A DNA stretch of 64,000 nt from positions 102,355-166,354 of the forward strand of contig JBBRWD010000003.1 in the NCBI GenBank assembly GCA_038249465.1. Direction: 5' to 3'. The DNA comes from Limisphaerales bacterium (GTDB taxonomy: Bacteria > Verrucomicrobiota > Verrucomicrobiia > Limisphaerales > JBBRWD01). Made by a program: the position numbers and the translations under genes. This document shows, piece after piece, positions 10,379 to 62,171 of the stretch. How positions within the stretch are numbered: position 1 is the first letter of the stretch; each line of letters begins with the position of its first letter. The notes beneath the pieces are model-generated. The model saw only the letters and a list, made by a program, of their open reading frames with translations. It was not told the DNA's origin and searched no databases.

Positions 10379-13300
10379 ATGAAAAACCAACACCACCCAA
10401 GGACGGTCCTTCTTCTCATCCTCAGCCTGGCGATGCACCTCAGCTCCGGCCTGGCACGCGGACAGGTGTGCGCGGCCAATCTGACCAATCGCGCCGATGT
10501 GTTTCTGGCCACGCCGGGGAATGACTATAATGTGTATTTCGATGTCAACGGGATGAGTGCGGACTCCTTCCCCGCAGTCAACGCCGGCTGGGTGCGCGAT
10601 GCATTGTTTGGGGCGCACCATGCCTTCGTGACCACCAACGGCTTTCGCAATCCTTCGTTCAGCGCCAATCCCAACGACACCTGCATTTCGATGGCGGTGG
10701 GCTGTTTCGCTGATGCGCCGCTGGATCGCATCCGGCTTCAATCCGGTTGCATGGCGGGCCTGACCGAACCCTTCACGCGCTCGGTGGTGACGCACGAGTT
10801 GTTTCATCACGCCCAATACGCCTACATCAACTTCAATGACTGGCCCTCTTGGGGCACCTGGACCATCGAGGCGACACCCTCGGCCATGGAAGACCGCTCC
10901 TTTGCCGACGTGGATAACAACGGGGCGAACTCCCGCTACGTCGGTGACGTGAACTTCTTCCTTGGGACGCCGAACACGACCTTGATGAGTCGCAGCTATG
11001 ACGCTGCACTCTTTTGGAACTATCTGGCCGAGCGACTGGGCACAGTCACGACGGAACCCAACCGCGGCGTGGACGTCATCCGCGGCTTTTGGGAACGGGC
11101 GCGCGGCAACAGCCCGGACAGCGTTCGCTACGTGCGCGATACCATTCAGGCCCAGGCGCCGGGGCGTACGTTGGAGGATTTGTTCATTGACCTGGCCATC
11201 GCCGGGTTCACCCACAATCTGGATCGAAGTCGTTTGCCGGCCGACCAGCAGGCGCGGTATGCGTTCTTGGACGAATCGGCCACCGGCGGCGGCACCGCCT
11301 ACGGCGCCTCGGCGCGAACCACGGTGACCTCGCTCAATACCACGCTGAGCAGCAATGTCGTCCGCTGGGGTGCGCAGTACTTCGTCGCCAACGTCGGGGA
11401 TAAAGGCTGCCAGGCCGTGGGCGCGTGGGGCAAAGCCAGGAACAATCAGAACCTGGGCTGGGCGGTGGTGGGCGTGCGGAGCGGAAACAAAGTGACGGAG
11501 ATAGCCCGTGGACAAGGGAGTGTCTTCTACCGTTCGTTCATCGATAATCCGGTGGATCCCTTCGTCCAGTTGGCGCTGGTGGTGGTGGGCTTGAATGAAG
11601 CCGCTGATTTCGACTATGCCTTCGGTTTCGGCCAGATCGGAGCCACCATCCTGCTGCCCACCATGGACCGGATGGCGTTTGCCGGCCGCCGCGATGATCC
11701 CCGCCGGTTCCAGGTGCGCCTGCGGATTACTGGACCGTCGGTGCTGACCCCGGCGGGTTCTGCGCCGATTTCGATTCGCGGCCTGGACCCGTCGATCTTC
11801 CGGATTGTCCTGCGAAGCACCAGCACCGGGGCGACTTATCCCGTCACCGTGGTCAACTCGGCCTACGTCAGCGGCGAATACTGGCTGGTCGCATCGGCAC
11901 CGGTCATCTCCAACGCCGCCGATGGCGACCTGTATGACCTGGAAGTCTGCGTGTGCACCACCGAACGCGACTGCGCCTCGCAGCTTGTCAATCCGCGGTC
12001 TGTTCTCTACGGCGACATCCAATACAACCAGATGCTGGTGCTGGATCGGTCCTACAGCATGCATTACCCGGAGCCGGTCGAAAGTTCGAAGATCGAGGCG
12101 GCGAGAAATGCGGCGCGAATGTTCGCCGATACCGCGGCGGACAACGATCGGCTCGGTTTGGTGACGTTCACCGGCGACAACACTGAGTGCAACCTCGACG
12201 CCACGGTCAACCGCCCGTTGCGGCTCATGAACGATGGCGGCATCGACAACCGCGGGCCGCTCATCAGCGCCATCAGCGGCGTGGTGGAGGATGGTTGGAC
12301 CTCCATCGGTGACGGACTGAAACTAGGCCGCGACGCTCTCCTGACAGCCTCGCCGCCGCTGGGCTTGCGCGACGTCAACGGGCTGCTGCTGCTAAGTGAT
12401 GGACTGGAGAACGAGGGAGATTTCTGGGCGGCGGCGAACACGGCGTGCCCAACGCCATTCCCGCCGCCGGTGCGCGATTCGTTTGACCCCGTCTCCGGTG
12501 TCGCTCGTAACATCAAGGTGGATACCATCGCCCTCGGATCCAATGCCGATCAGGAATTGCTGCAACGGATCGCGACTTTTACCCGGGGAACCTTCTATGC
12601 CGTCAGCGCCGATCCGCCCACCGGCGGAGGCGCGGCGCGCGCGGGCATCGCTCCGGCCAGCCCAGCCAGCGAGCCGCCCTCGATGAGCAGCCTCCAAGTG
12701 CCCAACCGGCTGGCCCACGTCCACCGCAGTGCCCAGGAGGAATTGCACGGGCACGATCGCCTGTTTTTCCGCGCCTTTGGATTGAACGCTGGCGCCAACA
12801 ACTTCGTGGTGCCGGTGACCGAACCCAGCGAAGGCGGCGTGCAGGAAGCCAGCTTCACCTTCAACTGGCACCTCCAATCCGTGACCGTAAAGGTGCATCT
12901 CTTCGATCCAGCCGGCGACGAAATCACCAGTTCCACGCCGGGCTGGAGTGTGTTTCAGGATGACACCCACCAAGTCTATCAGTTCAACGGCACCCTGCCG
13001 GCGGGCGACTACGCCGTGACCGCCGAGGCCAGCGGGCCGGTGCAATTGCTGGCCATGCTTTCCGGCTTGTTGATCCGAGGCGTGGATTTTGATCTCTACC
13101 TCTCGCAGCCGCGCGGCCTGGCACCCAATGCCGAATGTCCTTTCCGCGACCGCTATGATTATTTGCGCGGCCTGCCGGTGGATATCTTCGCCACGGTCAC
13201 CGACTACAAAGGCGGCATTGGTGGCCTGAGCATGGAGGCACGGATTGAGAATCCCGACGGTTCCATCAACCGGCTCAGCCTCTACGACGACGGCCTGCAC

Positions 13301-14686
13301 GACAATGGCATCGAGGGCGACGGTATTTACGGCAATCGCTACACCCGCACTCCCTTCTCCAGCCAGGGCGGCCAGCCGGATTTCCCCGGCCTTCCGGCTG
13401 GCCAGTGGGGAAGCTACACCGTCCAGGTCTTCGCCCAGGGCAAGGGCCATTCGGGCGATCCGTTTGAGCGCTTCGCCACGCGATTCTTTCAGGTCTATGA
13501 ATTCGTGGAAAATCCCCAGTTTAAAATATGCGATCCCGACACGGATGATGACGGCCTCCCGGACCGCTGGGAGGATTTGTATGGCTTGAACAAGCTGGAC
13601 CCCGCAGATGCGGCGCTCGACAACGACGTTGACGGGCTGAGCAACAAGGAAGAGTTCCAGCATGGCACGCTGCCGTTCAATCCGGACACCGACGGCGGGG
13701 GCGAATCCGATGGCTCGGAAGTCGCCGCCAGTCGCGATCCGCTCTACGACAAGGACGACCTCCTGCCTGCCATCATGGACTACGGCGTGGTCACCCACGT
13801 ATTCCACGTTCCGGTTCACGAGCCTGAACCCGAAACTCTGATCCTCCATTACCCAGTCAACACCGCCTATCGCTTCATGGAGGTCTGGAGATTTGACTGG
13901 GGCACCCTGACCTGGCTGCTCCACGAGCGGGTCGATCTCACCGTGGACCACTCCGGCATCTACTACGACCGCGGACTGGTCAACGACGTCGTTTACTTCT
14001 ACGCCTTGGTGGCGGAGGGCCACAGCGGCGCGCGAACCGCCGCCACCGCGTGGTTTGGCGGTGTGCCCAAAGCCGATCCGATTCCCCCGGACGGTGCCAT
14101 GATGATTAACATGGGCGACCACTTTACCGCGTCACCCGTGGTGAAGGTTCAGTTCGGGGTAAGTCCCGATACCAAGGAGGTCATGTTGTCTGAAGATCCC
14201 GCCTTTGCCGGGGCAATCTACCAGCCCTTCCAAGCCGAGCTTCCGTTCGCGCTCACATCTGGTCCCGGCCCGGTGACCGCGACGATTTACGCCAAACTTC
14301 GCGATGCCGCCCTCAATGAATCCATCGCCATCCATGATTCAATCCTACTCAACATGGCGGATGACTCCGACAACGATTCGCTGTCCGACATCTGGGAACG
14401 CCGGTTTTTTGGCGATCTTCGCTTCGGTCAGAATGACAATCCGGATCACGATGGTTTCTCCAACCGGGACGAGTTCCGCAATGGCACCGACCCGACCGAT
14501 CCGCGCAGCCCGCGGCGCGCCGGGGTAACCTCCATCCGCCGGGACGGCGGTCAGACGGTCATCGAATACGAAGGGACCCTCCGAAGTTCTGAACACGTCG
14601 ATGGGCCATATCTGGCCGAGCCGGGAGCCACCTCGCCTTATCGATTCACGCCCACGGATCGCAGCCGGTTCTTCCTGGCTGAATAA
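10379..14686 (+). CDS. very large secreted zinc metalloprotease-like protein with vWA domain and thrombospondin-type-3-like Ca-binding repeats
   Basis: Signal peptide 'MKNQHHPRTVLLLILSLAMHLSSGLA'. HExxH motif 'VVTHELFHHAQY'. vWA MIDAS-like 'MLVLDRSYSM'. Repeated 'DPDTDDDGLPDRWED'/'DNDVDGLSNKEE' segments. The C-terminal module ends in 'SRFFLAE'. Confidence 0.65.
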   Translation: MKNQHHPRTVLLLILSLAMHLSSGLARGQVCAANLTNRADVFLATPGNDYNVYFDVNGMSADSFPAVNAGWVRDALFGAHHAFVTTNGFRNPSFSANPNDTCISMAVGCFADAPLDRIRLQSGCMAGLTEPFTRSVVTHELFHHAQYAYINFNDWPSWGTWTIEATPSAMEDRSFADVDNNGANSRYVGDVNFFLGTPNTTLMSRSYDAALFWNYLAERLGTVTTEPNRGVDVIRGFWERARGNSPDSVRYVRDTIQAQAPGRTLEDLFIDLAIAGFTHNLDRSRLPADQQARYAFLDESATGGGTAYGASARTTVTSLNTTLSSNVVRWGAQYFVANVGDKGCQAVGAWGKARNNQNLGWAVVGVRSGNKVTEIARGQGSVFYRSFIDNPVDPFVQLALVVVGLNEAADFDYAFGFGQIGATILLPTMDRMAFAGRRDDPRRFQVRLRITGPSVLTPAGSAPISIRGLDPSIFRIVLRSTSTGATYPVTVVNSAYVSGEYWLVASAPVISNAADGDLYDLEVCVCTTERDCASQLVNPRSVLYGDIQYNQMLVLDRSYSMHYPEPVESSKIEAARNAARMFADTAADNDRLGLVTFTGDNTECNLDATVNRPLRLMNDGGIDNRGPLISAISGVVEDGWTSIGDGLKLGRDALLTASPPLGLRDVNGLLLLSDGLENEGDFWAAANTACPTPFPPPVRDSFDPVSGVARNIKVDTIALGSNADQELLQRIATFTRGTFYAVSADPPTGGGAARAGIAPASPASEPPSMSSLQVPNRLAHVHRSAQEELHGHDRLFFRAFGLNAGANNFVVPVTEPSEGGVQEASFTFNWHLQSVTVKVHLFDPAGDEITSSTPGWSVFQDDTHQVYQFNGTLPAGDYAVTAEASGPVQLLAMLSGLLIRGVDFDLYLSQPRGLAPNAECPFRDRYDYLRGLPVDIFATVTDYKGGIGGLSMEARIENPDGSINRLSLYDDGLHDNGIEGDGIYGNRYTRTPFSSQGGQPDFPGLPAGQWGSYTVQVFAQGKGHSGDPFERFATRFFQVYEFVENPQFKICDPDTDDDGLPDRWEDLYGLNKLDPADAALDNDVDGLSNKEEFQHGTLPFNPDTDGGGESDGSEVAASRDPLYDKDDLLPAIMDYGVVTHVFHVPVHEPEPETLILHYPVNTAYRFMEVWRFDWGTLTWLLHERVDLTVDHSGIYYDRGLVNDVVYFYALVAEGHSGARTAATAWFGGVPKADPIPPDGAMMINMGDHFTASPVVKVQFGVSPDTKEVMLSEDPAFAGAIYQPFQAELPFALTSGPGPVTATIYAKLRDAALNESIAIHDSILLNMADDSDNDSLSDIWERRFFGDLRFGQNDNPDHDGFSNRDEFRNGTDPTDPRSPRRAGVTSIRRDGGQTVIEYEGTLRSSEHVDGPYLAEPGATSPYRFTPTDRSRFFLAE

Positions 14687-15068: not shown

Positions 15069-18000
15069 TCACGGAATGAGGCGCAGCCGGTAAAAGCGTG
15101 TGTGTTGTGGGCCGGCCGGCAGGATGTCGTCGAAGTGTTCTTCAGTCGCGGTCGCGACGCGCGGGAGGCCGGCGGCGGTGAGTGGCCGGAAGACGTATTC
15201 GAGTCCGTTGGCGTACTGGATTTCGTAGCGGCGGCCTGGCACCGCCTTCCACGAAAGGCGCACCGTGTTGCCGGGCAGCATGGCGGCAGTCAGGCGCAGC
15301 GCCGAGGTGGGATCGCGCGGGTCGGTATCGGTGAGGTACTCGCCGAAGTTGGACACGCTGTCGTCATCTGCATCCTTGTCGCAATCGTCTGTCTCCGGGT
15401 TGAGTTGATGCAGTGTTTCCCAGGCGTCGGGCATGCCGTCACCGTCGGAATCAATTTCGGCGCCAGTGACGATGGTCACTTGGTCCGGCGTGCCGTCGGC
15501 ATTCAGGTCGAGTTCGGAGCGGACCTGCTTCACGCGCGGCCAGTCTTGCAGCACGACGCAATGCACCGCGCCGTTCGGCACGTTGAACGGGCCAAAGACG
15601 GCGCACGTGTTGTTCGTCGTGCGAGCATCCACGGCGTCCACGCGGAGGTAATGTTGCGTCGGCTTGCCGCTGTCATTGCGGTAATCGACGGCCCGCTGGC
15701 TCTTGAGGGCGCGGAATTCCTGGGTCCGGTTGCTCACGGCGTCGAGGCCGAGCCATTGGAACGTGGCGCAGGCGCCGTTGCTGATGGCGAAGCCGATCCT
15801 TGGAGTGAAGTTGCTGATGGCGGCCTGCGGCGTGAAGCGAAAGGAGCTGAGTTGATTGGAAATCGCAGTGAGGCTGATGCGATTGCTGTGGCCGGGCGTG
15901 CTGCCGGCCATTTCCAATTGCAGCATGGTGCCGCCCGCCGCGACGTGGAAGACGTTCGCGTTGCTGCCGCGCATGTGAATGTCGATGGCCGGAATGCCGT
16001 TCGAGATAGGCAGCAGAATGGGGATGCTCCGCGTGCGGTTTGTGGGAGTTCCCAGGATGGGAATGGCCTTCAGGCCGGGCAGGTTGTTCACGAAGGTGCC
16101 GTCTTGGCGCCAGCCCCATTCCCTGCCGGCCGGCGCGGTGAAATGCGCGTCGGCGTCGCCAGCCACCACGACGAGAAAGGTGCCCAGCGCGAGGGCAAAA
16201 TCGTAGAGGCCGGGCGCGGTGCGGGTGTCGGTGTATAGCCGGCGTGGCACGGTGAACAGCGCGGTGCCGGTCCAACCGCTGCCCGGGAAAATGTATTCGT
16301 TGGCACTGTGATCGATGTCGATGAATTGATTGGTGACGCACCAGTCGTCCGCGGCGGCGCCGATGGCGCACGGGCTGTTGTTGTCGTAAATCCAGATGCG
16401 CGTGATGTTGGGGTCGCCGCCATAGTTTCCCTCCACGCGGTAGGGCGACACGCAATGGCCGCCCTCAAAACCCTGCACCATGCAGACGGCCTGCGCGGTG
16501 GTGCCCGCGCGCAATTCGGGCAGACGCGCGACGGGATCGCCGCCGAAGTTGGGTGAGAACACATCGACATCGAGCTGCGAGATCAGGTGGTTCAAATACT
16601 CCGCGCTGGTCTGCGCGCCGTGGTTCATGCGGATGCGCGCCCAGATGTCCTTGGGGATGGGAGGGCGGGTGTACCGGCCGCCGGTGTTGCCGGTATCGAA
16701 CTCGCCGGGTGCCCCGGGGTTGTCAATGCCATTGGCGAAGAGCGCCTCGGGATCATAGGTCTGCGGGATCTCCAGCAGATTGAACAGTTCCAACGCGGTG
16801 CCGGAGAAGCCCACGCAACTGCCGGTGCTCTTGTCGATGACGATTTTATGCACCGGCCACCACAGGCCCCAATACAGAGGGTCCGGGATGTGGGCGCCGC
16901 AATCACCAATCGGGTCCACGCAGATGTAGGCGCTGTAACCGTAGCCGGCGAGGAACTCGTTGAGGAGGGCGTCGTGATCCTCGTTATCAAAACTGAACCC
17001 ATGAATGGTCGGATAGGGCGGACGGCGCAGCGTGAAGGTGCCGACGGTGCTGTATTCAATCTGTCCGGGACGGAACCACGCGTCGCGCGCGACCCATTGC
17101 CAGGGCGATTGGAACGAAGGCACGAAGGGGCCGCTGGTGTGTTGGCGCACGAAGTCGGGAACAAACGGCGCCTGCACGCGTACCGTGGTGGCATTGACCC
17201 GCTCGACGTTTGCAGCGGGAAGCAACGTCCATGCACCGGGGCTGGTCGGGAAGGTTCCAGTGATGGGTGACAGGGAGTATTCCATCTCCGCGTGCAGGTT
17301 CGTGCCGGTGAGCGTGACCCATTCGCCAAGTCCGCCAATGCCGCCCTGGCGCACGGCGATGCCGACCATTGGATTCGTGGGCGACGCGCCGGTGATCCCG
17401 GACGCGACCAGCAGGGGTCGTTGCACGAAGAAATCCACGTTGGCGAATTGGAAGGTCCCGCTGGCGCCGGTGGGGAGGCCGGCAAAGATGACGCGATTGG
17501 TGTAGATGAATTGCGGCTGTATTCCGGCGGCACTCACGCGGGGCAACGTGTAGCGGCCGAACGCCTCCAGTTCCGCCTGCGCGAAAATGAACGTCGTCCC
17601 AGCCGGCACCGGCTCGTCAAAACTGAACCGCCCAAAGCTGTCGGTGAACTTGCTGTAAGCCACGCTGTCGGCGATGAGTGACACGCGATAGTTGGGCAGC
17701 GGTGTGGAGGTGTTGGTGAGGCCGGAGAAGACCCGTCCGCTCCAGCGCACCCGTGGCAGGTTTGCGCTGCCTTCGCCGTAGGACATCGTGAGCCAGGTCG
17801 CGGGCGACGCCTCGAAGCCCGCCTCGGGGATGAAGGTTTGGTCGCCGAACGAAGTGAAATTGATCTGTCCCAGCGCCACTCCATCGAACTCGTTGAAGTT
17901 TCCCAGCAGCGTTCGGGCCACGCGAAACTCCGTGCAGATCGCGGTGGAAATTTCACCGCCGCAGAACCGCTGGCCCACCTGATAGAGACTGCGCGGCGTG

Positions 18001-24176: not shown

Positions 24177-26987
24177 TCATTGCACGCCCACGCGGTAGAA
24201 GCGCGGACCTGCTGGCGCGGCGTTGGTGTCGGTGAAGGTGGTGGTGCCGGTTTGCCCGGCGATGTTCGATGCCAGCGGGAGGAACGAGGCGTTCGTCGCC
24301 AAGCTCGTGCTGCGTTCGAGGAAGTAGGTCTTGTTCGTCACGCTCTGCCATGTCACCACGAGGTTGGAGCCGACGGTCTGTGGAGTGAGCAGGCGCAGGG
24401 CGGAAAGCGCGTTGGTGGGAACGGTGGCGCAATTCCATTCCTGCCAGTTGTTCGCGTGGTCGCCATCCGGGTCGGTGAAGTCCGCCGAACCATCGGTGGG
24501 CAGACCGTATTGTTGGAGCCAGGCGTAGGAGAGCTGTGACGCGGGTGACTGGAATTCGTAGGCGCCGATGTCCACCGCGCCGCCGACGATGTGCGGCTTG
24601 CCGTCGAGGTCGGTGGTGCCGGAGACAGAGGCGTTGTCGCCGGCGTTGATGCAGGGGGAATTGCTTTGGAGCCGCAGATTGCTCCAGCCGTTGGTGTTCA
24701 TGAACAATGGTGCATTGGTCAGATTTCCCCCGTCCGCAGGCAGCGGCGTGGAGCAGCAGTATTTGAAGGTGCCGCCATAGCAATTGGGGCCATTTGGAGC
24801 CGAATTGTAGTAGATGATGCAGTTGTTCATGGAACTCCATTCGGCCCCGCCGGCGTACGAACGAGCGATATTGCCAGCGAGCGTGCAGTTGTTCAACGTG
24901 CCGAAGTAGGCCCCGCCGCCCTCCTGGTCGGCTGAATTGTCTGTGAGCACGCAGTTGTGAAGTGTGCCAAGGAAGACCCCGCCGCCCTTGATGGCTGAAT
25001 TGCCTGTGAGCACGCAGTTGGACACCACCACATTCCATCCCTCGCTCCATACCCCGCCGCCAGCGCCGGGGCTGCCGTAGTAATCGGAGTTCTGCGTCGC
25101 ACCGTTGGTTAGGGTAAAACCCGCGAGCACCGCCCCGTTGGTTAGATAGACGCAGCGCACCGCGGTCGGGCCAGTCCTGGTTCCCGGCTCCTGGTAGCCC
25201 AGGATTTGGGTCACGGGCGGCCCGTTGACGCTCCGCACCGTCACCGGCTTGGTGACCGCCACCCGGTTGGTCATTCGATACACTTCCCGAACGCCGATCT
25301 GGTAAACCCCGTTGCTCACCCACACCAGCGCCCCAGGAACTGTCGCCACGTCCACCGCATCTTGAATGTTTCTGGCCGCGGCAGCCCACGAACTGTAGGG
25401 CTGCAGCGGGTTGGCGCTGGTCAGCGCCACATAGTGGGTCGGTTGAGGCACAACCCGCACCGTGACCGTAGCCGCCACTCCGGCCGGATTACTCTCGTTA
25501 CAAGCCCGCAATTCGACCACGTAATCCCCTGCCGCTGCCCAAGCATGCGAAGCCCAAGGCCGATTGCTCGCCACACTCCCGTCGCCAAAGTCCCAACGCG
25601 ACGAGCTCACCTGTCCCCCGATCACCGCTTGGAAATCCACCCCAAAGCCCACCGCCACATTCGTGTAAGCTGCCACAATTGCCACATTAAGTGCGCCCGT
25701 CAGCGAACCGCACCAATACTCGTCGCAGCCGATAGAAGGCGGATTAGCCCACGGTTCGCTGTCGAGGTCCTCGCCGCTGGCGTATGCGGCGCTGCCCCGA
25801 CCGATGCAGGGAGAACCGGCGCTCAGACGCCACGTGCCGGCCAGTTGCGGATCCTCAGCCAGGTTGCCCGGGCCCGGGGGCAGGGGCGTGGTGCAGCAAT
25901 AGTTGAAAGTGGCGCCAAAGTAATTGGTATCAGCATAGCGGGCACTGTTGTTATGAACGATGCAGTTGTTCAGCGTGCCGTACATGGCCCCGCCGACCCT
26001 GTTTGCCGAATTGCCCGTGAGCGTGCAGTTGCTCAGCTTGCCCTCGTAGGCTCCACCGCCGCTTTTTGCCGAGTTGCCCGTAAGCGTGCAGTTGTTCAAC
26101 GTGCCGCCGTAAGCCCCGCCGCCGTCGTCGGCTGAATTGCCCGTGAGCGTGCAGTTGTTCGCCCTACTACCGTCGACCCCGCCACCGAACCGAGATGCTG
26201 AATTGCCCATGAGTGCGCAGTTGTTCAGAGTGCCGCCGTAAGCCCCGCCGCCGTAGGTGGCTGAATTGCCCGTGAGCGAACATTTGTTCAGTGTTCCGGT
26301 GTAGGCTCCACCGCCGAAGGACGCCGAATTGCCGGTGAACACGCAGTTGTTAAATGTTCCTGCATAGGCTCCGCCGCCATACGCACTGGTTGAATTGCTC
26401 GTGAGCACACAGTTGTTCAGTGTGCCTCCAAATGCTCCGGCGCCTTGGGAGTAGGCTGAATTGCCGGTGAGCACGCAGTTGGATAAAACCGCACTGAACC
26501 CCTCGCTCCACACGCCGCCCCCGGATTGATTCGTGTAGGAATTGGCAGAAGTTTGTGTTGCGCCATTGGTCAGTGTGAAGCCCGCGAGCAAAGCCCCGTT
26601 GGTCAGAAACACGCAGCGCACTGCCGCCGGGCCATTTCGAGTACCCGGTACTTGGTATCCCACGATATGAGTCTCCGAAGGCCCGTTAACGCTCCGCACC
26701 GTCACCGCCTTAGTCACCGCCACCCGGTTGGTCATCGTCCCGTTCACCGCGCGGCCCCCCGTCGCATATACACCGTTGTTCACCAGAATTTCATCGCCCG
26801 GCTCGGCGGCGTCTACAGCTTCTTGGATATTCGTCGCGGCGGTGGACCAGTCGGTGAACGGCGGCACGGGATTGGTGTTGTTGATGTTCACATAGCGCAC
26901 GGTGGCGGCGGGCAGCGACAGCGCGGCGGTGAGGAGAAGAAGAGAGGAGAGCGCTTTCCCGGAATGCAGTCTGGAAGAGGATTTCAT
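24177..26987 (-). CDS. large secreted right-handed beta-helix repeat protein with internal duplication and C-terminal sorting-like module
   Basis: Signal peptide 'MKSSSRLHSGKALSSLLLLTAALSLPA'. Dozens of 'NNCxLTGNSA' parallel beta-helix repeats. Two ~450-aa modules are duplicated ('...VAVTKAVTVRSVNGPSETHIVGYQVPGTRNGPAAVRCV' vs '...VAVTKPVTVRSVNGPPVTQILGYQEPGTRTGPTAVRCV'). The protein ends in 'PRFYRVGVQ'. Confidence 0.6.
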   Translation of the reverse strand: MKSSSRLHSGKALSSLLLLTAALSLPAATVRYVNINNTNPVPPFTDWSTAATNIQEAVDAAEPGDEILVNNGVYATGGRAVNGTMTNRVAVTKAVTVRSVNGPSETHIVGYQVPGTRNGPAAVRCVFLTNGALLAGFTLTNGATQTSANSYTNQSGGGVWSEGFSAVLSNCVLTGNSAYSQGAGAFGGTLNNCVLTSNSTSAYGGGAYAGTFNNCVFTGNSASFGGGAYTGTLNKCSLTGNSATYGGGAYGGTLNNCALMGNSASRFGGGVDGSRANNCTLTGNSADDGGGAYGGTLNNCTLTGNSAKSGGGAYEGKLSNCTLTGNSANRVGGAMYGTLNNCIVHNNSARYADTNYFGATFNYCCTTPLPPGPGNLAEDPQLAGTWRLSAGSPCIGRGSAAYASGEDLDSEPWANPPSIGCDEYWCGSLTGALNVAIVAAYTNVAVGFGVDFQAVIGGQVSSSRWDFGDGSVASNRPWASHAWAAAGDYVVELRACNESNPAGVAATVTVRVVPQPTHYVALTSANPLQPYSSWAAAARNIQDAVDVATVPGALVWVSNGVYQIGVREVYRMTNRVAVTKPVTVRSVNGPPVTQILGYQEPGTRTGPTAVRCVYLTNGAVLAGFTLTNGATQNSDYYGSPGAGGGVWSEGWNVVVSNCVLTGNSAIKGGGVFLGTLHNCVLTDNSADQEGGGAYFGTLNNCTLAGNIARSYAGGAEWSSMNNCIIYYNSAPNGPNCYGGTFKYCCSTPLPADGGNLTNAPLFMNTNGWSNLRLQSNSPCINAGDNASVSGTTDLDGKPHIVGGAVDIGAYEFQSPASQLSYAWLQQYGLPTDGSADFTDPDGDHANNWQEWNCATVPTNALSALRLLTPQTVGSNLVVTWQSVTNKTYFLERSTSLATNASFLPLASNIAGQTGTTTFTDTNAAPAGPRFYRVGVQ

Positions 26988-39551: not shown

Positions 39552-41033
39552 ATGCCCAAGGAGCATTTCATGAGGATTCTTCCGACACTTATTCTCGCCA
39601 CCGCCGCGCTGTCGCTCGCCGCTGCAACGAACATCCACGCTGCGGTAACGGCGACTCAAGCAACGCCAGTTTCCAACTGGCTCGCGCTGACGATTACCAA
39701 TCCCACGCCGGCAACCAGCGACTTCTTCGGCTTTTCCGTGGCGGCGGTGGGGACCGACCGGGTGCTGATTGGGGCGTTTCGGGACGACACGGGTGGGACC
39801 TCTGCCGGGGCGGCATATCTTTTCAGCACCAACGGCGCATTGCTGACCACCTTCACCAATCCCACGCCGGCATCCAGTGGCTACTTCGGATATTCCGTGG
39901 CGGCGGTGGGGACCGACCGGGTGCTGATTGGGGCGTGGTTCGATAACACGGGCGCGAGCGATGCCAGGGCGGCGTATCTGTTCAGCACCAACGGCGTGTT
40001 GCTGACCACCTTCACCAATCCCACGCCGACAGCCGGTGACTACTTCGGCCGGTCCGTGGCGGCGGTGGGGACCGACCAGGTGCTGATTGGCACGCCTAAC
40101 GACGACACGGGTGCGGACAATGCCGGAGCGGCGTATCTGTTCAGCACTGACGGCGCATTGCTCACCACCTTCACCAAGCCCACGCCGGCAGCCGGCGACA
40201 ACTTCGGCGCTTCCGTAGTGGCGGTGGGGAGCGACCTGGTACTGATTGGGGCGTATCTTGACGACACGGGCGCGGTCGATGCCGGAGCGGCGTATTTGTT
40301 CAGCACCAACGGCGCATTACTCACCACTTTCACCAATCCCACGCCGGCCGCCGGCTACCACTTCGGCGGTTCCGTGGTGGCGGTGGGGACCGACCGGGTG
40401 CTGATTGGGGGGCCTTACCACAACACGGGTGCCCAGGGTGCCGGGGCGGCGTATCTGTTCAGCACCAACGGCGCGTTGCTGACCACCTTCATCAATCCCA
40501 CGCCGGCAGCCGACGACTGGTTCGGCTATTCTGTGGCGGCGGTTGGGACCGACCGGGTGCTGATTGGGGCGATTCTGGACGACGCGAGCGTGAGCGATGC
40601 CGGGGCGGCGTATTTGTTCAGCACTAACGGCACGTTGCTCACCATCTTTACCAATCCCACGCCGGCAACCTTCGACCACTTCGGCGGGTCCGTGGCGGCG
40701 GTGGGGACCGACCGGGTGCTGATTGGGGCGTATCTGGACGATACGGGCGCTCCCGATGCCGGGTCGGTGTATCTGTTCAGCCTCGAACCGTTCACTCCAG
40801 CAGCGCCATCGCTCTCGACCCGCCGCAACCCTTCGCTCTCCACCATCACCATCTCCTGGCCCGCGCCGGCGGAGGGGTGGTTGCTGGAAGGCACCAACGC
40901 GCTGCCGTCCGTGGCGGCGTCCTCGTGGCTGCCGGTTCCGCCGCCGTATCAAACCAACGCGGGAACCATCTCGGTGACGTTTACCAACCTTCCCGCCACC
41001 GGAAACCAGTTCTTCCGACTGCGCCAGCCTTGA
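39552..41033 (+). CDS. secreted FG-GAP-like beta-propeller repeat protein with C-terminal sorting-like module
   Basis: Signal peptide. Nine near-identical ~47-aa repeats 'TFTNPTPAxxDxFGxSVAAVGTDRVLIGAxxDDTGAxDAGAAYLFSTNGALLT'. The protein ends in 'NQFFRLRQP'. Confidence 0.6.
   Translation: MPKEHFMRILPTLILATAALSLAAATNIHAAVTATQATPVSNWLALTITNPTPATSDFFGFSVAAVGTDRVLIGAFRDDTGGTSAGAAYLFSTNGALLTTFTNPTPASSGYFGYSVAAVGTDRVLIGAWFDNTGASDARAAYLFSTNGVLLTTFTNPTPTAGDYFGRSVAAVGTDQVLIGTPNDDTGADNAGAAYLFSTDGALLTTFTKPTPAAGDNFGASVVAVGSDLVLIGAYLDDTGAVDAGAAYLFSTNGALLTTFTNPTPAAGYHFGGSVVAVGTDRVLIGGPYHNTGAQGAGAAYLFSTNGALLTTFINPTPAADDWFGYSVAAVGTDRVLIGAILDDASVSDAGAAYLFSTNGTLLTIFTNPTPATFDHFGGSVAAVGTDRVLIGAYLDDTGAPDAGSVYLFSLEPFTPAAPSLSTRRNPSLSTITISWPAPAEGWLLEGTNALPSVAASSWLPVPPPYQTNAGTISVTFTNLPATGNQFFRLRQP
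39693..40790 (+). repeat. tandem ~141-bp coding repeats (x8-9) inside the FG-GAP gene, near-identical at DNA level
   Basis: Recurring 'caccaatcccacgccggc...ttccgtggcggcggtggggaccgaccgggtgctgattggggcg...gcggcgtatctgttcagcaccaacggcgcattgctgaccacctt' units. Confidence 0.7.
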
Positions 41034-54325: not shown

Positions 54326-56008
54326 TTACACAAGCGAATCGCCGAACGGTTCGGCGTAGCGAGCGATGTGCTCCACTTCTTCGACGTCCCACGCATCCCC
54401 TGCCATCTGCGGCAGCGAGGGATTCTCGAAGCGGATGCCGGCGAGTTGCGTGTAGTGGTCGAAGATGTCCGTGTTCTCGATCAGACCGGCGAAGCGTTCC
54501 GCCCCCGGTCCGCTGGCCAGGATGGGCACGTAGTCGGAGGTGTGCGTGTTGCCGGTGAAGCCGATGCCAAAATAGTTCGCCATCAACTGGCCGAACTGCG
54601 TGATGACCGGATTCATCTGGTCAAAGAGCGTCCAGCTATCGCCCGCGAGAACCTCGCCCAACATCAGCGCCCGCGCCCGCGGCATGTTATAGCCGGTGGT
54701 TTCGCGGACGATCGCGATGATGTCCTGCGGCGACACGAGCCAGGCGTAGTGGGGCGTCTTCTTGGCTGGCTTGGCCTTCGGATCAACCGGTTCCTTCTTT
54801 TTCGCAGCGTCGGCGAGCACCTGATCCGGGTTTTTAAAACTGGGGTGTTTGTAAGGCAGCGGTTCGTCTCCTTCCACGAGGCGAGGCGGCTCGGTCTCGA
54901 ACTTGCGCCCCGCCTTTTCGAGCCGCTTCAAAATCTCGGGATACGAGCAGCGCACGTGGCTGAGATTGGTGAAGCGCAGCGAGCTGCGCAGGTAATTGCC
55001 GCTCATTCCGTTGAGGCCCATGTTGGAGTTGGCGTGGTCGGTCGTCGCCACCACCAGCGTGTCGGGGTGCTCGCGTTGAAAAGCGAGCACCAGTTCCAGC
55101 GCCTCATCGAGCGCGATCTGATCGTGGATGGCCGCGGGCGCGTCGGAGTTGTGCGCGGCATGGTCGATGCGTGCTCCTTCCACCTGGAGGATGAACTGGT
55201 CCGAAGCCGCGAGCCGGTCGAGCGCGGCGCGGGTCATCTCGGCCAGCGTCGGAACTTTCGCGCGCAGCTTCGCATCAGTCCGGTGATCGATCTCGTAGGG
55301 CAGATGGCTGTCGGTGAAGATACCCAGCAGCCGGCCCTTGCGGTCTGCCGCCAGCAATTGTTCGCGCGTTTCCACGACGGTGTAGCCGGCTTTGCGATAC
55401 TCAGCCTTGACGTCCCGCTTGTCCTTGCGTTTGGCCTTGTCAAAGAACGGAAGGCCGCCGCCGAGCAGGATGTCCACGCGCCGGTCGAGATACTGCGTGG
55501 CGATGGTGTTGGGGTTCTCCCGGTTGACGACGGTGGCGGCAAAGCCCGCCGGCGTGGCGTGGGTGATTTCCGCCGTGGTCACCAGGGCGCGTGTCCACCC
55601 GGCGTCGGCGAACAAACTGTAAAGGGGTTTCAACTCGCGTCCATCCGGCAGCACATTGAGCGCACCGTTCAAGACCCGCGAACCGCTGCCCCAGCTCGAC
55701 GCAGCGGCCGCCGAGTCCGTCACCAGCGAATTGAGCGAGCGGGTGTTCATCAGGCCCCGCTGCGTTTCAGGTCGCTGGTAGAATTCCATCCAGGCCAGCG
55801 GGCGTTTGCGAAAGATGCGCGAGTAATGGTCCGCACAACTGAGCGTGCCGAGGCTCATCCCGTCGCTGACGACATGGATGATGCGCCGCGGCCGGCTGCC
55901 AGCGCGGGCGTTGAGGGCTTCGGCGGACTGTGCGATGTGAGGCGTGCCGGCGGCGGCGATGGCGGCGGCGGCACCCGAACGGCTGAGGAATTGACGGCGA
56001 TTGAGCAT
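54326..56008 (-). CDS. alkaline phosphatase (PhoA family), Tat-secreted
   Basis: Tat motif 'MLNRRQFLSRSGAAAAIAAAG'. 'IIHVVSDGMS' (metal-binding Asp) and active-site 'TDSAAAASSWGSG'. Confidence 0.7.
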   Translation of the reverse strand: MLNRRQFLSRSGAAAAIAAAGTPHIAQSAEALNARAGSRPRRIIHVVSDGMSLGTLSCADHYSRIFRKRPLAWMEFYQRPETQRGLMNTRSLNSLVTDSAAAASSWGSGSRVLNGALNVLPDGRELKPLYSLFADAGWTRALVTTAEITHATPAGFAATVVNRENPNTIATQYLDRRVDILLGGGLPFFDKAKRKDKRDVKAEYRKAGYTVVETREQLLAADRKGRLLGIFTDSHLPYEIDHRTDAKLRAKVPTLAEMTRAALDRLAASDQFILQVEGARIDHAAHNSDAPAAIHDQIALDEALELVLAFQREHPDTLVVATTDHANSNMGLNGMSGNYLRSSLRFTNLSHVRCSYPEILKRLEKAGRKFETEPPRLVEGDEPLPYKHPSFKNPDQVLADAAKKKEPVDPKAKPAKKTPHYAWLVSPQDIIAIVRETTGYNMPRARALMLGEVLAGDSWTLFDQMNPVITQFGQLMANYFGIGFTGNTHTSDYVPILASGPGAERFAGLIENTDIFDHYTQLAGIRFENPSLPQMAGDAWDVEEVEHIARYAEPFGDSLV

Positions 56009-56019: not shown

Positions 56020-57753
56020 TTAAGGATTGGATGAGGATGAGGACGAAGAGGTGGAGGATTCGGACTGCGCGAGCTTCTTCAACAAGCCCGCGGCGGTGGC
56101 GGAAGTCCGCGAGGCGGGACCGTAGGCGAGGGTTTCTCCGAAGGTCCCGGTGGCGCGCGCCTGGAGAACCAGTTCCGGACTGAGTTCCGGGGTGCCTTTC
56201 ACCTTTCTCTTGCCGATGTAGTTGACCGTGACCCAGACCACCTTGTTGGTTTCACCTTTGGCTGGCGTGGCCACGCGCAGCGGGAATTCCGTCACGGAGT
56301 AGTTTTTTGCGGAATCGGGCGCCAGCGTGATCTCCAACTGCGCGGGCTGCGGCGAGGTCTTGAGCGGTGGCAGCGTGATCATGGCCATCGCGGGCTGCCG
56401 GTTGGTCGGCACCGAGGCGAGCTTGGCCAGCAGGTTGGGACCAATTTCGTAAGTCACTTTCATCGCCTCCTCGGGGTACACCTGTGCCAGGAATTCCGGC
56501 GTCTGCCGTCCGCCGGGCTTGCGAATTTCAAACTGGTCAATCTCCGCCCCGTCCACGCGGATGGCTTTCGCGACAAGGCGATCTCGTGACGCCTCCACCG
56601 CGACGAAGTGGTTGGTCGAAACCCCGAAGGCCTGGGCGGGATGCGGCAGGACGCGGTTCAATTCCGCTCCACCGCCTCCCGTGGTGATGGCGGTCACGGC
56701 CCAGGCGCTGGGCGGGTTGGTGGGGGCGACCGGGCGAAACCGCTCGTAGAAATGGCTGTGCCCCGCGAAGACAATGTCCACCTTGGCCTCGTGGAACAGC
56801 GGCAGGTAATGCTGGTGTCCCCAGGAGGAACTGTGGCCGCCGAAGTTGAAGATCGGGTTGTGCAGGAAGACGACCTTCCAAGGAGCCTTCGATTCCAGCA
56901 GGTCATTTTTCGCAAACTTGAACTGCTCGTGCGTTTCCTTCTCGAAATGGTAGTCGATGGCCAGCACGTGGACCGGGCCGGCATCAAAGGAATACCAGCG
57001 GTTGCTGCCCTTCATCGGAAAATAGGCGAGGTAGTTCTTCAGATCCTCCTCGTGATTCCCCGGCACGGCAAAGAACGGAACTTGGTCAGCCACGCCCCGC
57101 ACCGGCTCAAAGAACTGTTGAAGCCATTGCCCGTAATCCTTGCCCGCGAGCACCAGGTCGCCGGTGTGCAAGACGAACTCGGGTTCATGCTCCAGGAAGC
57201 GACCCGCTACGACGCGATGAACCCTGGGATTGCTGCGCGAGTCTCCATACGCGATGAACCGCACTGAGTCTGCCCGGGGATGGAACGTCTTGAAGGCACG
57301 CGGCGCCGTCGCCTTGCCGGCCAACTCCACCGCGTAGGTGTAGCGGGCGCCGGGCTGGAGATTCGTCAGCGCGGCTTGATAGACGTAGAACATGTTGGTG
57401 ATCGATCCTCTGACGCGATTCGTTTTTGTCACGGTCGCACCATTGGTCACGATGGTGACGAAGTTCGTGTGGCGGAACGGAGTCAGGCCCACGAGCCTCT
57501 TCGGCGTCACGGGGCCAAACTGCTGGTCGAGCGAGCCGTTGAGGCCGAAGCGGACAAACCCCGGAATATTCGTGGGCGATTCCCACATCACGCTCATGGT
57601 GTCCGGCCCGGGCGCCTGGAGATACGGTCCTTTGGAAATGGTCTGCCGCGCGCTTTGGCCTCCAAGGGAGGAGCAACCCCAAATCATGACGAGTGCCAGC
57701 CCGCTCAGGCCGAGAGCCAATGCTTTGGAGAAAATCGAGTTTTGCTGTTTCAT
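56020..57753 (-). CDS. purple acid phosphatase / calcineurin-like metallophosphoesterase, lipoprotein
   Basis: Lipobox 'LVMIWGCSS'. Metallophosphoesterase motifs 'FIAYGDSRS', 'VLHTGDLV', 'VPGNHE' and 'FAGHSHFYER'. A 12-nt gap separates it from the alkaline phosphatase gene on the same strand. Confidence 0.7.
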   Translation of the reverse strand: MKQQNSIFSKALALGLSGLALVMIWGCSSLGGQSARQTISKGPYLQAPGPDTMSVMWESPTNIPGFVRFGLNGSLDQQFGPVTPKRLVGLTPFRHTNFVTIVTNGATVTKTNRVRGSITNMFYVYQAALTNLQPGARYTYAVELAGKATAPRAFKTFHPRADSVRFIAYGDSRSNPRVHRVVAGRFLEHEPEFVLHTGDLVLAGKDYGQWLQQFFEPVRGVADQVPFFAVPGNHEEDLKNYLAYFPMKGSNRWYSFDAGPVHVLAIDYHFEKETHEQFKFAKNDLLESKAPWKVVFLHNPIFNFGGHSSSWGHQHYLPLFHEAKVDIVFAGHSHFYERFRPVAPTNPPSAWAVTAITTGGGGAELNRVLPHPAQAFGVSTNHFVAVEASRDRLVAKAIRVDGAEIDQFEIRKPGGRQTPEFLAQVYPEEAMKVTYEIGPNLLAKLASVPTNRQPAMAMITLPPLKTSPQPAQLEITLAPDSAKNYSVTEFPLRVATPAKGETNKVVWVTVNYIGKRKVKGTPELSPELVLQARATGTFGETLAYGPASRTSATAAGLLKKLAQSESSTSSSSSSSNP

Positions 57754-58210: not shown

Positions 58211-58287
58211 GACAGGGATTAAGCGATGAACGTTTGATTCTGCCAAGAGACAACCCATTCATCCAAAATTTCCACACGCGAAGCCGA

Positions 58288-58610: not shown

Positions 58611-61600
58611 TCACGGCAGGATGCGAATCCGGAAGATGCCATTGGTTAAACCGAGCGAGCTGGTCTTGCTCGCCGTATTCGCCGGCGCGGTCACGTCGCC
58701 AGGCAGCGTGCTCCAGTTGGTGGCTGCCAGACTGGACTTGTATTCCACCCGATAACTCCGACCGGCGATGGCCGACCAGGTGAGGGTCAGGTTGGTGCCC
58801 ACGACGGCCGGACGGAGAAGCGTCGGACGTGCCACCACCCAGATGTTGAGCGCGCCGGTGGCGCTCAGACTGGGCGTGCCGTTGTCAAAGACGCGCACTC
58901 TCACCCGGTTCGTGGTGCCCGCATCGGCGTCGCCGCTGGACCAGTTAATCTGGCCCGCGCCATTGACGGTCAGCCCCGTCGGACCGGAAAGGAGGGCGAA
59001 GGTGAGCGTGTTGGCTGGCAGGTCCGGATCGGAAGCGGTCGCGGTGAGCGAGAGCGGAACACCGGCATGAATCGTCCGGTCGGCTGGCACGGTGATGGAC
59101 GGCGCCACGTTCTCTTCGTTGACCGTCAGGGTGAAACTGTTGGTGCTGCTCAGGGATTTCGAGCTTGCCGCAGCCGCATTGGTGTCGCTCACGCGGACGA
59201 AGATGAGATTGGTGCTCGGATTCTGCGCACTGACTGGCGTCCAGGTGATCGCCCCGGAGGGAGATACGGCCAGTCCCGCCGGACCTGAAACCAGCGAAAA
59301 CGTCAGCGGATTGGCCGGGATGTCCGGGTCGGTGGCGGTGGCGTTGTTGCTGTAGGAAGTGAGTTGATGGATCGTCCGGTTGGGCGGCATGGTGAGGGTC
59401 GGGGCGGTGTTTGCTTCGCGCACGATGACGGTGAAACTGTTGGTCGTGTTCAACGCCGTTGCATTCACCGCGGAGGGATTGCTGTCGGTGACCTTCACCC
59501 GGATCAGGTTGGTGCTCGGGCTTTGAGATTCGCCCGGCGTCCAGGTCAACACGCCGCTGGCGGAGTTGACCGCGACCCCCGTCGGGCCGCCCGCCAGGGC
59601 AAACGTGAACGAATTGGCCGGCACATCGGCGTCCGTGGCGGTGTTGGTGACCGTCAACGTGGTGTGTTCGGTCACCGTTTGTTCGCCGGGCACGGTCAAC
59701 ACGGGCGCGACATTCACCTCCCGGACGATGACGTTGAAACTGTTGGTGGTGCTCAACGACTGATTGGTCACGGCGAAGGCGTTCGTGTCGGTCACCTTGA
59801 TGCGCACCTGATTGGTGCCGGGGCCATCTGTTTCGGTGGGTGTCCACGTCATCGCGCCGGATGGTGAAACGGTGAAACCAGCCGGCCCGGAAAGGAGCGC
59901 AAAGGTCCGCCCGTTGGTCGGCACATCGGCATCCGTGGCCGTGGCGTTGTTGGTGAAGAGCGCCATCTCGTTGGCGTTCGGATTCGACGGCAGGGAAAGC
60001 ACCGGCGGGACGTTGTTCTCGTTCACCACGACTTGAAACGCGCGCGAAGCCGTCAGGCGCGGTGAACCGCTGTCCGTCACCAGCACGGTGATGTTCGTGA
60101 CCAGCGGACCCTGGTTCTCCGTGGGCGTCCAGCGGATGACGCCGCTGCTGTTGATGGTGGCGCCAGTGGGGGAATTGGTCAGCGCGTAGGTGAAGGTCTG
60201 CGCCGGTCGGTCGGCATCGGTGACACTGACCGTTACGCTGAGCTGGGCGAGTTCGTTGTTGGTCCGATCCGTGATGGGGGCGATGACCGGGCGGACATTG
60301 GCGGCCCGAAGGACGGCATTGGTCAGGGTGTAGTCAACGGTCAGACCGGCCACATTCGGGGAATAGAGCAGGTTGGTGAACGTGCCGGTGCGGCTGGCGT
60401 TCGTGAGGAAGACAAACGAGGCGTTTGTCGGCGGAGTGAAGCCGTTCGTAAAAATGACCGCGAGCGTCCCGTTGAGACTGGCGGTGCCGGTGATCAGGAG
60501 CTGATCGAAGTTGGTTCCGGGCGCAGTGCCCCCGAGTTCAATCTCCAACACCCCGTTGGTGGTCTGGGTGTAGCTGCCGGCGATGACCATGGACCCGAGT
60601 GAACTGCCGGGGCGGACCGTCCCATTGTTGACGACGCTGCCCACGACCCGGTTGGTGCCGGCGAGCCTGCCGCCCTGGAGTTGCAGCGGCTGGCCGGTGC
60701 TGAGATTTCCCCCTTCGAGCAGCGTCCATCCGGCGGTCTGCACATACCGGTTGATGCTCAACGTGCCGCGCTGCACCTGCACCGTGCCGGAATTGGTGAA
60801 ATTCACGCCGAAACCGGCGGTATTCGTTCCGCTCGTTTTCCGAAGCACTCCCGCGTTGAAAAAGCCCCGGCTGCCGGTGTCGAAATACGACACGTCGGCC
60901 GCGAGGTCAAACACAGCGCCAGGGGCATTGCTGATCGCCGCGCCGCCTGATGCATAGATTACCCCGGCGCTCCAGGTGGCTTGGGCGGTGTTGTTCAAAG
61001 TGCGCCCGACAAAGTATCGGTTTGCGTCGTCTGCGATGGTCAGACCGCCCTCGGCACGCACCGTGCCCAAGCCGTTGATGTTGCCACCGGTCCAGACCAT
61101 TGGCCCGCTGACCAGCAAATCATTGGTACCGCCGAGGCTGCCGAGGCTGAGGTTCAAAACCGTCGGAGCAATGAGACCGCTGCCATTGAAGTTGGCCGTC
61201 CCGCCGGCAATGTTCAATGTCCCACCGGAAATACTGGCGCTTCCTGAGAAATTTGCCGTGCCCGAGATCAATGAATTGGACCCACCGAGGTTGATCATGC
61301 CAAGAAAATTGGCGGTGCCGCCGCTGACACTTAAACCGCCAGCGCCGGTGACGCTGGAAACAGGGTTGAACTGGTTCACCCCGCCGACCAGTTGGAGGAC
61401 GGCACCAGCCGAGACGACGAAGCTCCCGTTGTTCGTTCCTCCGCCATAGAGTCGGAGGGCGCCCGATTGCACCTCGACTGCGCCGCTGTTGTTGAACCCA
61501 ATCCCGCCGGCCACGATCATCGCGGCGACGCCGCCGGTTTTACGCAACAGCCCCGCATTGGCCAAGGTTCCACCACTGAGATTGGCGATGTGGCCATCGA

Positions 61601-62171
61601 ACTCACAGTCAAACGTGCCGCCCGGCGCATTGGATATCACGCCGCCTCCGCCCAGGTTAATCGCCCCTCCGCTCCACGTCGCGGTGGCCGTATTGACCAG
61701 AGTTCGTCCGTTGAGGTTCTTCGCAGCGGTGCCGGGCAGGAACAAGCCGCCTCGCGCGGAAATGAGTCCCGATCCCGAGAACGTGCCACCCGCCCAGATG
61801 AATGTTCCGTCGGCCGTCACGGCAGCCGTGCCCGCCAGACTGCCGCCGCCCAGGCTGAGCACGCCATTGGCATTCACCGTTCCCAAACCATTTAGCGTGA
61901 GAATCTGATTGGCGTTCGTGAGAGTCTGCGCGCCGGAGGATCCGCCCAGCACCAGATTCGCCAGCGTGGCGCTGTTGTCGAGCGTCACGGTGTAGGTGCC
62001 GTTGTTCGTGAGGAAGACATTGTCTCCGGAGCCTGGCACCTGATGTGAACGCCAGTTGTTGGTCCCACTCCAATTGCCACCAGCACTATTGGTCCAGACA
62101 AAATCAGCCGCGCTCAGCCCCGGTGAGAGAGCGGAGAAACAAATGAACAGAATAATAAAAAGCCTTCGCAT
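58611..62171 (-). CDS. giant surface adhesin: autotransporter-like beta-helix passenger repeats + cadherin/Ig-like (He_PIG-like) repeats + C-terminal sorting-like module
   Basis: Signal peptide 'MRRLFIILFICFSALSPGLSA'. Long Gly/Asn/Thr-rich 'GGT.NF.G...' beta-helix repeats. Six or more ~100-aa repeats 'VTDADxPxxxxTFALxxGPxGxxVxxSGxxTWTP'. The protein ends in 'GIFRIRILP'. Confidence 0.6.
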   Translation of the reverse strand: MRRLFIILFICFSALSPGLSAADFVWTNSAGGNWSGTNNWRSHQVPGSGDNVFLTNNGTYTVTLDNSATLANLVLGGSSGAQTLTNANQILTLNGLGTVNANGVLSLGGGSLAGTAAVTADGTFIWAGGTFSGSGLISARGGLFLPGTAAKNLNGRTLVNTATATWSGGAINLGGGGVISNAPGGTFDCEFDGHIANLSGGTLANAGLLRKTGGVAAMIVAGGIGFNNSGAVEVQSGALRLYGGGTNNGSFVVSAGAVLQLVGGVNQFNPVSSVTGAGGLSVSGGTANFLGMINLGGSNSLISGTANFSGSASISGGTLNIAGGTANFNGSGLIAPTVLNLSLGSLGGTNDLLVSGPMVWTGGNINGLGTVRAEGGLTIADDANRYFVGRTLNNTAQATWSAGVIYASGGAAISNAPGAVFDLAADVSYFDTGSRGFFNAGVLRKTSGTNTAGFGVNFTNSGTVQVQRGTLSINRYVQTAGWTLLEGGNLSTGQPLQLQGGRLAGTNRVVGSVVNNGTVRPGSSLGSMVIAGSYTQTTNGVLEIELGGTAPGTNFDQLLITGTASLNGTLAVIFTNGFTPPTNASFVFLTNASRTGTFTNLLYSPNVAGLTVDYTLTNAVLRAANVRPVIAPITDRTNNELAQLSVTVSVTDADRPAQTFTYALTNSPTGATINSSGVIRWTPTENQGPLVTNITVLVTDSGSPRLTASRAFQVVVNENNVPPVLSLPSNPNANEMALFTNNATATDADVPTNGRTFALLSGPAGFTVSPSGAMTWTPTETDGPGTNQVRIKVTDTNAFAVTNQSLSTTNSFNVIVREVNVAPVLTVPGEQTVTEHTTLTVTNTATDADVPANSFTFALAGGPTGVAVNSASGVLTWTPGESQSPSTNLIRVKVTDSNPSAVNATALNTTNSFTVIVREANTAPTLTMPPNRTIHQLTSYSNNATATDPDIPANPLTFSLVSGPAGLAVSPSGAITWTPVSAQNPSTNLIFVRVSDTNAAAASSKSLSSTNSFTLTVNEENVAPSITVPADRTIHAGVPLSLTATASDPDLPANTLTFALLSGPTGLTVNGAGQINWSSGDADAGTTNRVRVRVFDNGTPSLSATGALNIWVVARPTLLRPAVVGTNLTLTWSAIAGRSYRVEYKSSLAATNWSTLPGDVTAPANTASKTSSLGLTNGIFRIRILP

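Follow-up and report, generated by a model that had tools for sequence, protein, structure and literature searches.

Four secreted proteins encoded in a 64,000-nucleotide stretch of a Limisphaerales bacterium genome (Verrucomicrobiota; GenBank assembly GCA_038249465.1, contig JBBRWD010000003.1, positions 102,355 to 166,354; G+C 61-66%), which as a whole we call the window, end in one homologous module of about 75 amino acids. A copy of this module nearly always forms the extreme C-terminus of the proteins that carry it, and the family is new; no description of it was found in the literature that could be searched or in Pfam, NCBIfam, and the PDB. Judged by its anatomy alone, the module is very probably an FN3-like sandwich without a G strand. 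We consider it somewhat better than even (about 0.55 for the reading as a whole, with docking as its conjectural part) that the module serves as a folded terminal foot by which surface proteins are held at, or handed to, the outer envelope.

The original prediction, made from the letters of this DNA, described five giant secreted proteins sharing a C-terminal module of about 60 amino acids that ends in an F-[FY]-R-[LIV] motif. All five C-termini it quoted were found in place, each with a stop codon directly after it, and N-terminal signal peptides were read by eye from an appropriate Met in all five open reading frames (ORFs), here designated P1 to P5. The description as giant was overstated for P4, which has about 487 residues, and the module is about 75 residues long. 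Membership was confirmed by hidden Markov model (HMM) and alignment for P2, P3, P4, and P5 and could not be detected for P1. Over their last 75 to 79 residues, P2 to P5 share 24-37% pairwise identity, and Trp, Leu, Pro, Thr, and Arg each occupy columns without variation. To avoid circularity, an HMM was built exclusively from copies that external, unrelated multi-copy proteins carry; scanned against all six frames of the window, this external-only HMM recovered the four tails at E values from 4.6e-20 to 2.1e-11 (Table 1), the sole further signal being a marginal one (E of about 0.02-0.05) at the canonical fn3 domain of ORF 62794-63720. The pattern [FY][FY]R[LVIA] fell within the last 12 residues of 25 of 618 long ORF segments from the window and 18 related loci, where 0.3 would be expected from its internal frequency, with 18 of these 25 positives having been preselected by a related pattern. 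This excess, together with the external-only HMM matches, rules out a chance or compositional origin of the tail. The P2-orthologous tails P0022, P0037, P0044, and P0178 end at the identical position, and P4-orthologous tails were found in P0020, P0031, P0035, P0049, and P0054.

The fold predicted for the module is a β-sandwich of six strands, A-B-C-C'-E-F, which follows the FN3 strand order and resembles solved FN3 domains in structure; the isolated module was folded confidently by AlphaFold 2 (AF2), in a model derived from a single module and 14 aligned sequences. The signature residues of FN3, namely, a Trp in strand B, an aromatic residue in strand C, and the tyrosine corner in strand F, are present in alignments A2/A3. 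Accordingly mapped, 'L[ST]W' corresponds to strand B and its FN3 tryptophan, 'Y.[LV]E' to strand C, and 'F-[FY]-R-[LIV]-R' to strand F, which holds the tyrosine corner. The counterpart of 'F-[FY]-R-[LIV]' in the canonical bacterial FN3 arrays P0058 and P0067 is their F strand 'YYYRISA'; these arrays are weakly picked up by the module profile, and in them an FG loop and a G strand come after strand F. In the short type studied here, strand F is followed by a Pro-rich linker in internal copies or by the stop codon in terminal copies; of 100 terminal copies, 93 have the protein end 5-7 residues past the F-strand Tyr, the last residue being Pro in 41% and Gln in 23%, and the period of arrays is 70-84 residues versus 85-107 in canonical FN3 arrays. 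The six-strand model, the chain end, and the array period all show the module to lack the seventh (G) strand of an ordinary FN3 domain. Because the chain passes from strand F straight to the linker or stop, the motif is the last structural strand, the tyrosine-corner strand of an FN3-like fold, and not the linear sorting signal that had been proposed. A sequence search of the PDB with the module returned marginal matches only (E of at least 0.019), with no solved structure of the family.

Compared with the FN3 family (PF00041), the module is alike in strand order and signature residues, but it is shorter (about 75 residues versus 90-100), has no G strand and no PF00041 match, sits near-obligately at the extreme C-terminus, and has its internal copies joined by Pro-rich linkers. 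The window itself holds a contrast to the short module: a 308-residue protein (62794-63720, minus strand) ends in a canonical PF00041 fn3 domain in which the G strand is present and the FYR tail absent.

The terminal position was assessed in proteins with one or several copies. Among the 150 best representatives, a list skewed towards multi-copy and P3-type proteins, the last copy lies within 5 residues of the C-terminus in 41 of the 46 proteins with one copy and in 60 of the 104 with several. Splitting the arrays by period provides an internal control for this rule. Short-period arrays (up to 84 residues) from the top representatives have a copy within 8 residues of the C-terminus in 30 of 34 cases, and of the four exceptions at least two (P0109 and P0110) finish in a diverged copy; canonical FN3 arrays (above 84 residues) are terminal in only 4 of 39 cases, and those four finish in a short-type 'RFYR' or similar copy. 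When the window and 24 loci (about 470 kb) were surveyed, all 35 module-carrying ORFs had a copy as their end, with 0-7 residues between it and the stop, and no ORF with internal copies only was present among them. These carriers comprise 25 plus 8 from six-frame HMM scans and 2 recognized by the tail pattern only and read by eye; about nine of the 35 are neighbouring genes that had not been used to fetch the loci (Table 1). Terminal and internal copies were indistinguishable, as the last copy contains no cleavage site or terminal-specific sequence. Genes that end in the module tend to cluster, with three consecutive carriers in each of L004 (1-6948) and L023 (440-19378), two in L006 (2-10339), and three in L009 (2672-20342).

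Pfam and NCBIfam contain models for the C-terminal domain (CTD) of type IX secretion system (T9SS) substrates (TIGR04183, TIGR04131, and Por_Secre_tail), and neither these nor any other model of the two collections matched the isolated modules, even at E<=10. PF00041 likewise gave no match to P1-P5 or to isolated modules at that threshold, and it matched 12 of 68 external carriers, apparently canonical arrays. No description of the module was found in the searchable literature. The initial homologue search retrieved only short C-terminal fragments, all from close orthologues. A HMMER scan of 1.84 billion representative proteins then yielded 16,697 matches at E<=1e-3, a list whose weaker tail takes in canonical FN3 arrays, and 1,568 at E<=1e-10. 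When genomes were scanned with the P3-type cassette (alignment A4) as the seed, a choice that biases towards P3 homologues, the 18 loci used above were obtained. Of these, 13 belong to named Verrucomicrobiota lineages (Pedosphaera, Verrucomicrobiae, and one 'Akkermansia sp.' metagenome-assembled genome [MAG]); the other five sit on contigs that are short or odd and were binned to other phyla. The bins that contain L001, L003, L016, and L017 are MAGs of Bifidobacteriaceae, Binatia, Gemmatimonadaceae, and Methylomirabilota, and such non-Verrucomicrobiota contigs with the terminal cassette are probably mis-binned rather than true occurrences. Named cluster members of the module family are likewise Verrucomicrobiota. 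The module is thus abundant and, wherever a name is available, found in Verrucomicrobiota.

The original prediction had likened the shared domain to T9SS CTDs or other sorting tags. The CTDs of Bacteroidota (TIGR04183 / Por_Secre_tail) do resemble the module in being folded Ig-like sandwiches of about 70-100 residues at the very C-terminus of unrelated Sec-dependent cargo; PMC4804311 describes them as Ig-like β-sandwiches. They differ in that the module matches no sorting-domain model at E<=10, occurs in Verrucomicrobiota, and is also found in internal tandem copies, and the 64-kb window contains none of the T9SS genes PorK/L/M/N, Sov, and PorU/V, of which PorU encodes the sortase that cleaves the CTD. 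Identity with a known sorting tag was thus not supported, and membership in the T9SS CTD, PEP-CTERM, LPXTG, or any sorting family in Pfam or NCBIfam was rejected because no model matched. The tails ...RFYRLRLIP, ...RFYRVGVQ, ...QFFRLRQP, and ...IFRIRILP contain no hydrophobic helix of the kind that marks a transmembrane (TM) anchor. Substrates of the type I secretion system (T1SS/RTX) have no signal peptide and carry an unstructured C-terminal signal after Ca-binding repeats, whereas the module carriers have N-terminal signal peptides and a folded tail. Chaperone-usher pilins share with the module an Ig-like sandwich without a C-terminal G strand, but carriers of the module are large multidomain enzymes and adhesins without an N-terminal donor extension. 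Altogether, the module is not a membrane anchor, a linear signal, or a T9SS CTD.

P3 offers a further comparison because it has a choice-of-anchor Q domain directly before its C-terminal element, as do choice-of-anchor proteins with PEP-CTERM, LPXTG, or T9SS tails. The 'choice-of-anchor' name reflects carriers that end in differing surface anchors by lineage (bioRxiv 10.1101/2023.03.06.531300). The tail of P3 departs from those anchors in being a soluble folded domain without a TM helix, a PEP/LPXTG motif, or a basic stop-transfer sequence, and in P3 the anchor slot after the choice-of-anchor domain is taken by a linker plus the module. This P3 cassette is kept in many external proteins, and across the external members of alignment A4 its identity is 51-88%. 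Across 12 members of the P3 family, the terminal 160 residues, i.e., choice-of-anchor Q, TSP3 linker, and module, have a mean pairwise identity of 0.52-0.69 versus 0.25-0.53 for the β-helix body. One external protein, P0152 (414 residues), carries a 16-letter prepilin-type leader at its N-terminus and a P3-type TSP3-plus-module cassette at its C-terminus, which makes it a pilin-like protein with the module as its cap.

External carriers with complete N-termini have signal peptides, and those that seem to lack one look like genes called with a truncated 5' end. Single copies of the module are found on many unrelated cargos, and the cargo types of carriers include β-helix, PKD, Big_9, cadherin, MBG, Ig, He_PIG, lectin, and FG-GAP domains, S8 proteases, and small 'DWFTIDGGGG' proteins. 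The last of these are secreted proteins built from a signal peptide, the segment 'Y(A/S)(I/L)DWFT(L/I)DGGGG', and at least one P4-type module, and in them most of the chain is module; examples are L016 1339-1788 (minus strand) and the external proteins P0049, P0050, P0054, P0082, and P0085. The expectation of a shared C-terminal β-rich domain on unrelated cargo was thus borne out on Sec-exported or otherwise extracytoplasmic proteins, with the terminal position as a strong rule.

Giant S8/subtilisin proteases of 2,278-2,994 residues combine an N-terminal TM segment with C-terminal arrays of the short module, and in all four loci examined (Table 1) their genes immediately follow a conserved pseudopilin cassette. 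This cassette contains 2-3 prepilin-type genes, two unknown genes, and one gene for a protein of 1,211-1,386 residues; the N-termini of its proteins match the Verru_Chthon cassette proteins D, C, and A below threshold, and a GspF/T2SSF gene lies upstream of it in the two loci that reach that far (L019 and L020). No secretion genes were found beside two non-S8 carriers. The coupling of S8 and pseudopilin genes is the only hint of a link to machinery, and it comes from one cargo family.

Our preferred reading would place the module as a foot. In a six-strand sandwich, chain entry and exit would lie on one side; this would make the domain a natural terminal cap, and such same-side termini would account for the long Pro-rich linkers in arrays. 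The last strand, as an exposed sheet edge, could dock by β-augmentation, and by such non-covalent docking the module might hold proteins at, or hand them to, an outer-envelope component, with upstream copies acting as a stalk and TSP3 repeats as a Ca-binding hinge. A role of the terminal module in surface attachment or export is plausible. Several observations weigh against this reading. The same-side termini and the exposed edge are deduced from geometry and not from inspected coordinates, the model itself represents a single module, and a Foldseek search of the module against the PDB gave no significant match. The top-150 list is, as noted, skewed. Internal tandem copies are frequent, with up to 8 in the short-type arrays examined and Pro-rich linkers between them; a free C-terminus is therefore not needed for folding, and a pure terminal tag is unlikely. 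All-versus-all clustering of ORFs from the 18 loci and the window revealed no conserved partner gene adjoining the cargo genes, and only the cargo family recurred. Finally, the S8 proteases look N-terminally membrane-anchored and P0152 has a prepilin leader, and such N-terminal anchoring of some carriers would put the module at their distal end, not at the anchor.

Some of these points would fit an ordinary structural or spacer domain of Ig/FN3 type with no targeting role, which might have become terminal through a dead-end six-strand geometry, a history of 3'-end duplication, or protection of the C-terminus from proteolysis. The FN3-like fold, tandem arrays of the sort typical of stalk domains, a motif fully accounted for as the tyrosine-corner strand, and the lack of a partner gene beside the cargo all agree with such a role. 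An ordinary internal FN3/Ig domain had indeed been named as the finding that would overturn the original prediction, and the internal tandem copies go part of the way there; the counterweight is the near-obligate terminal copy. That the canonical arrays are so much less often terminal than the short-type arrays (4/39 versus 30/34), that single copies sit on many unrelated cargos, and that the module region is more conserved than the cargo in the P3 family make a purely structural role rather unlikely. A true export or sorting domain, recognized in the periplasm by an outer-membrane or pseudopilus machine resembling the type II secretion system (T2SS), carried across, and possibly cleaved in the manner of a T9SS CTD, would explain the obligate terminal position on unrelated Sec-dependent cargo and the many genes per genome region; the choice-of-anchor domain upstream of the module in P3 and the module-rich S8 proteases right after the Verru_Chthon-like pseudopilin/GspF cassette (4/4 loci) also point in this direction, as does the Ig-like β-sandwich fold of T9SS CTDs (PMC4804311). 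We nevertheless regard it as quite unlikely, given that no Pfam or NCBIfam model, the T9SS CTD included, matches at E<=10, that common internal tandem copies are unlike any known sorting domain, that ordinary cargo genes do not adjoin secretion genes, and that the last copy cannot be told from internal ones by a cleavage site or a sequence of its own.

An incomplete Ig fold that receives its G strand in trans from a subunit or anchor, as in chaperone-usher or type V pilins, and thereby polymerizes or tethers its carriers would accord with the six-strand model, the chain end after strand F, and the prepilin leader of the one carrier P0152. Such donor-strand complementation is, however, exceedingly unlikely here: AF2 folds the isolated module confidently, neither an N-terminal donor extension nor chaperone or usher genes were found in the window or the 18 loci, and internal copies are trailed only by Pro-rich linkers.

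Returning to the terminal foot, it is a speculative, long-odds extension of this reading that the cap is the docking or recognition domain of a pathway, not described so far, by which Verrucomicrobiota would move or tether folded, Sec-exported proteins at their outer membrane, possibly through the Verru_Chthon-type pseudopilin (T2SS-like) cassettes that are coupled to the S8 proteases. If this were true, the module would be a modular, transferable 'T2SS-type' surface-sorting domain and a functional analogue of the T9SS CTD; we know of no transferable signal for T2SS-type export. The route by which large adhesins and enzymes get onto or across the outer membrane in Verrucomicrobiota and the PVC group is poorly understood, and a module that is abundant, present on very different cargo, and nearly always last in the protein offers a concrete, cheap handle on Verrucomicrobiota surface proteins. 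Should it be only a structural cap, it would still be a useful new family for annotating many 'hypothetical' surface proteins.

Table 1. Coordinates of the window proteins P1 to P5 and their C-terminal elements, of neighbouring module carriers, and of the S8 protease loci. Domain assignments of P1 to P5 are from Pfam and NCBIfam scans; E values of modules are those of the external-only HMM.
Feature	Position	Strand	Description
P1 gene	10379..14686	+	Met 10379; signal peptide, MXAN_6640-like HExxH protease, VWA, TSP3
P1 tail	14492..14683	+	TSP3 repeat (TSP3_bac match), then β-rich ~55 aa ending RSRFFLAE
P2 gene	15069..20099	-	Met 20099; signal peptide, two Laminin_G_3 domains (LamG), linker, module
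P2 module	15072..15308	-	...LSWKAVPGRRYEIQY...RFYRLRLIP, stop; E 5.7e-12
P2 linker	15309..15380	-	TSP3-like, acidic, DKDADDDSVSNFGEYLTDTDPRDP; read from translation; aligns with the P3 linker position (alignment A1)
P3 gene	24177..26987	-	Met 26987; signal peptide, parallel β-helix, PKD, choice-of-anchor Q, linker, module
P3 module	24180..24407	-	...VTWQSVTNKTYFLERS...RFYRVGVQ, stop; E 4.6e-20
P3 linker	24408..24515	-	TSP3-type, acidic, 35 letters, leading into the module; part of a conserved ~112-aa terminal cassette
P3 choice-of-anchor Q	24549..24686	-	NCBIfam NF041518, E 4.7e-13, residues 778-823; directly upstream of linker and module
P4 gene	39570..41033	+	Met 39570; signal peptide, seven FG-GAP_2 repeats, module
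P4 module	40803..41030	+	...ISWPAPAEGWLLEG...QFFRLRQP, stop; E 2.1e-11
P5 gene	58611..62171	-	Met 62171; signal peptide, Big_9 / RibLong / cadherin-like adhesin, module
P5 module	58614..58838	-	...LTWSAIAGRSYRVEYKS...GIFRIRILP, stop; E 1.5e-19
Neighbour carriers, L004	2603-6334, 6529-6948
Neighbour carrier, L006	2-4630
Neighbour carriers, L009	5686-2672, 20342-19425
Neighbour carrier, L012	7955-10105
Neighbour carrier, L016	1788-1339
Neighbour carriers, L023	440-4864, 4898-8767
S8 locus, L019	1-18985
S8 locus, L020	1-16837
S8 locus, L021	1-15582
S8 locus, L022	4646-17644

The tail of P1 looks like those of the other four proteins, with which it has in common only a TSP3-type linker and 'RFF' near the end. 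It was matched neither by the HMM of P2-P5 nor, with thresholds off, by an external HMM of 301 instances; a search for P1 homologues retrieved no candidates, and AF2 run on the single sequence gave the tail an uninformative predicted local distance difference test (pLDDT) score of 48.7. With two module HMMs silent and no homologues retrieved, P1 was rejected as a fifth member as unproven; its tail may be a degenerate short variant of the module.

Four other secreted proteins of the window (27246-29420, 50297-53143, 54326-56008, and 56020-57753) have tails without the module. One of them, at 27246-29420 (minus strand), is an exported FAD-dependent oxidoreductase whose C-terminal domain is Golvesin_C, a different terminal domain in the same region. 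Amid the surface-protein genes lies a Tn5-family transposase gene (43651-45081, minus strand; Tnp_DNA_bind plus Dimer_Tnp_Tn5). At 78-3689 (minus strand), the window encodes a 1,203-residue protein that joins TIR_2, a NACHT/STAND ATPase, and a TANC1-like winged helix-turn-helix (wHTH) in the architecture of a conflict/defence NTPase, and a similar TIR-NB-ARC-TPR gene is located near a module carrier at L024 1594-4545. A single ORF at 8738-9871 (minus strand) fuses a CusF-like copper-binding domain to a SCO1/SenC domain.

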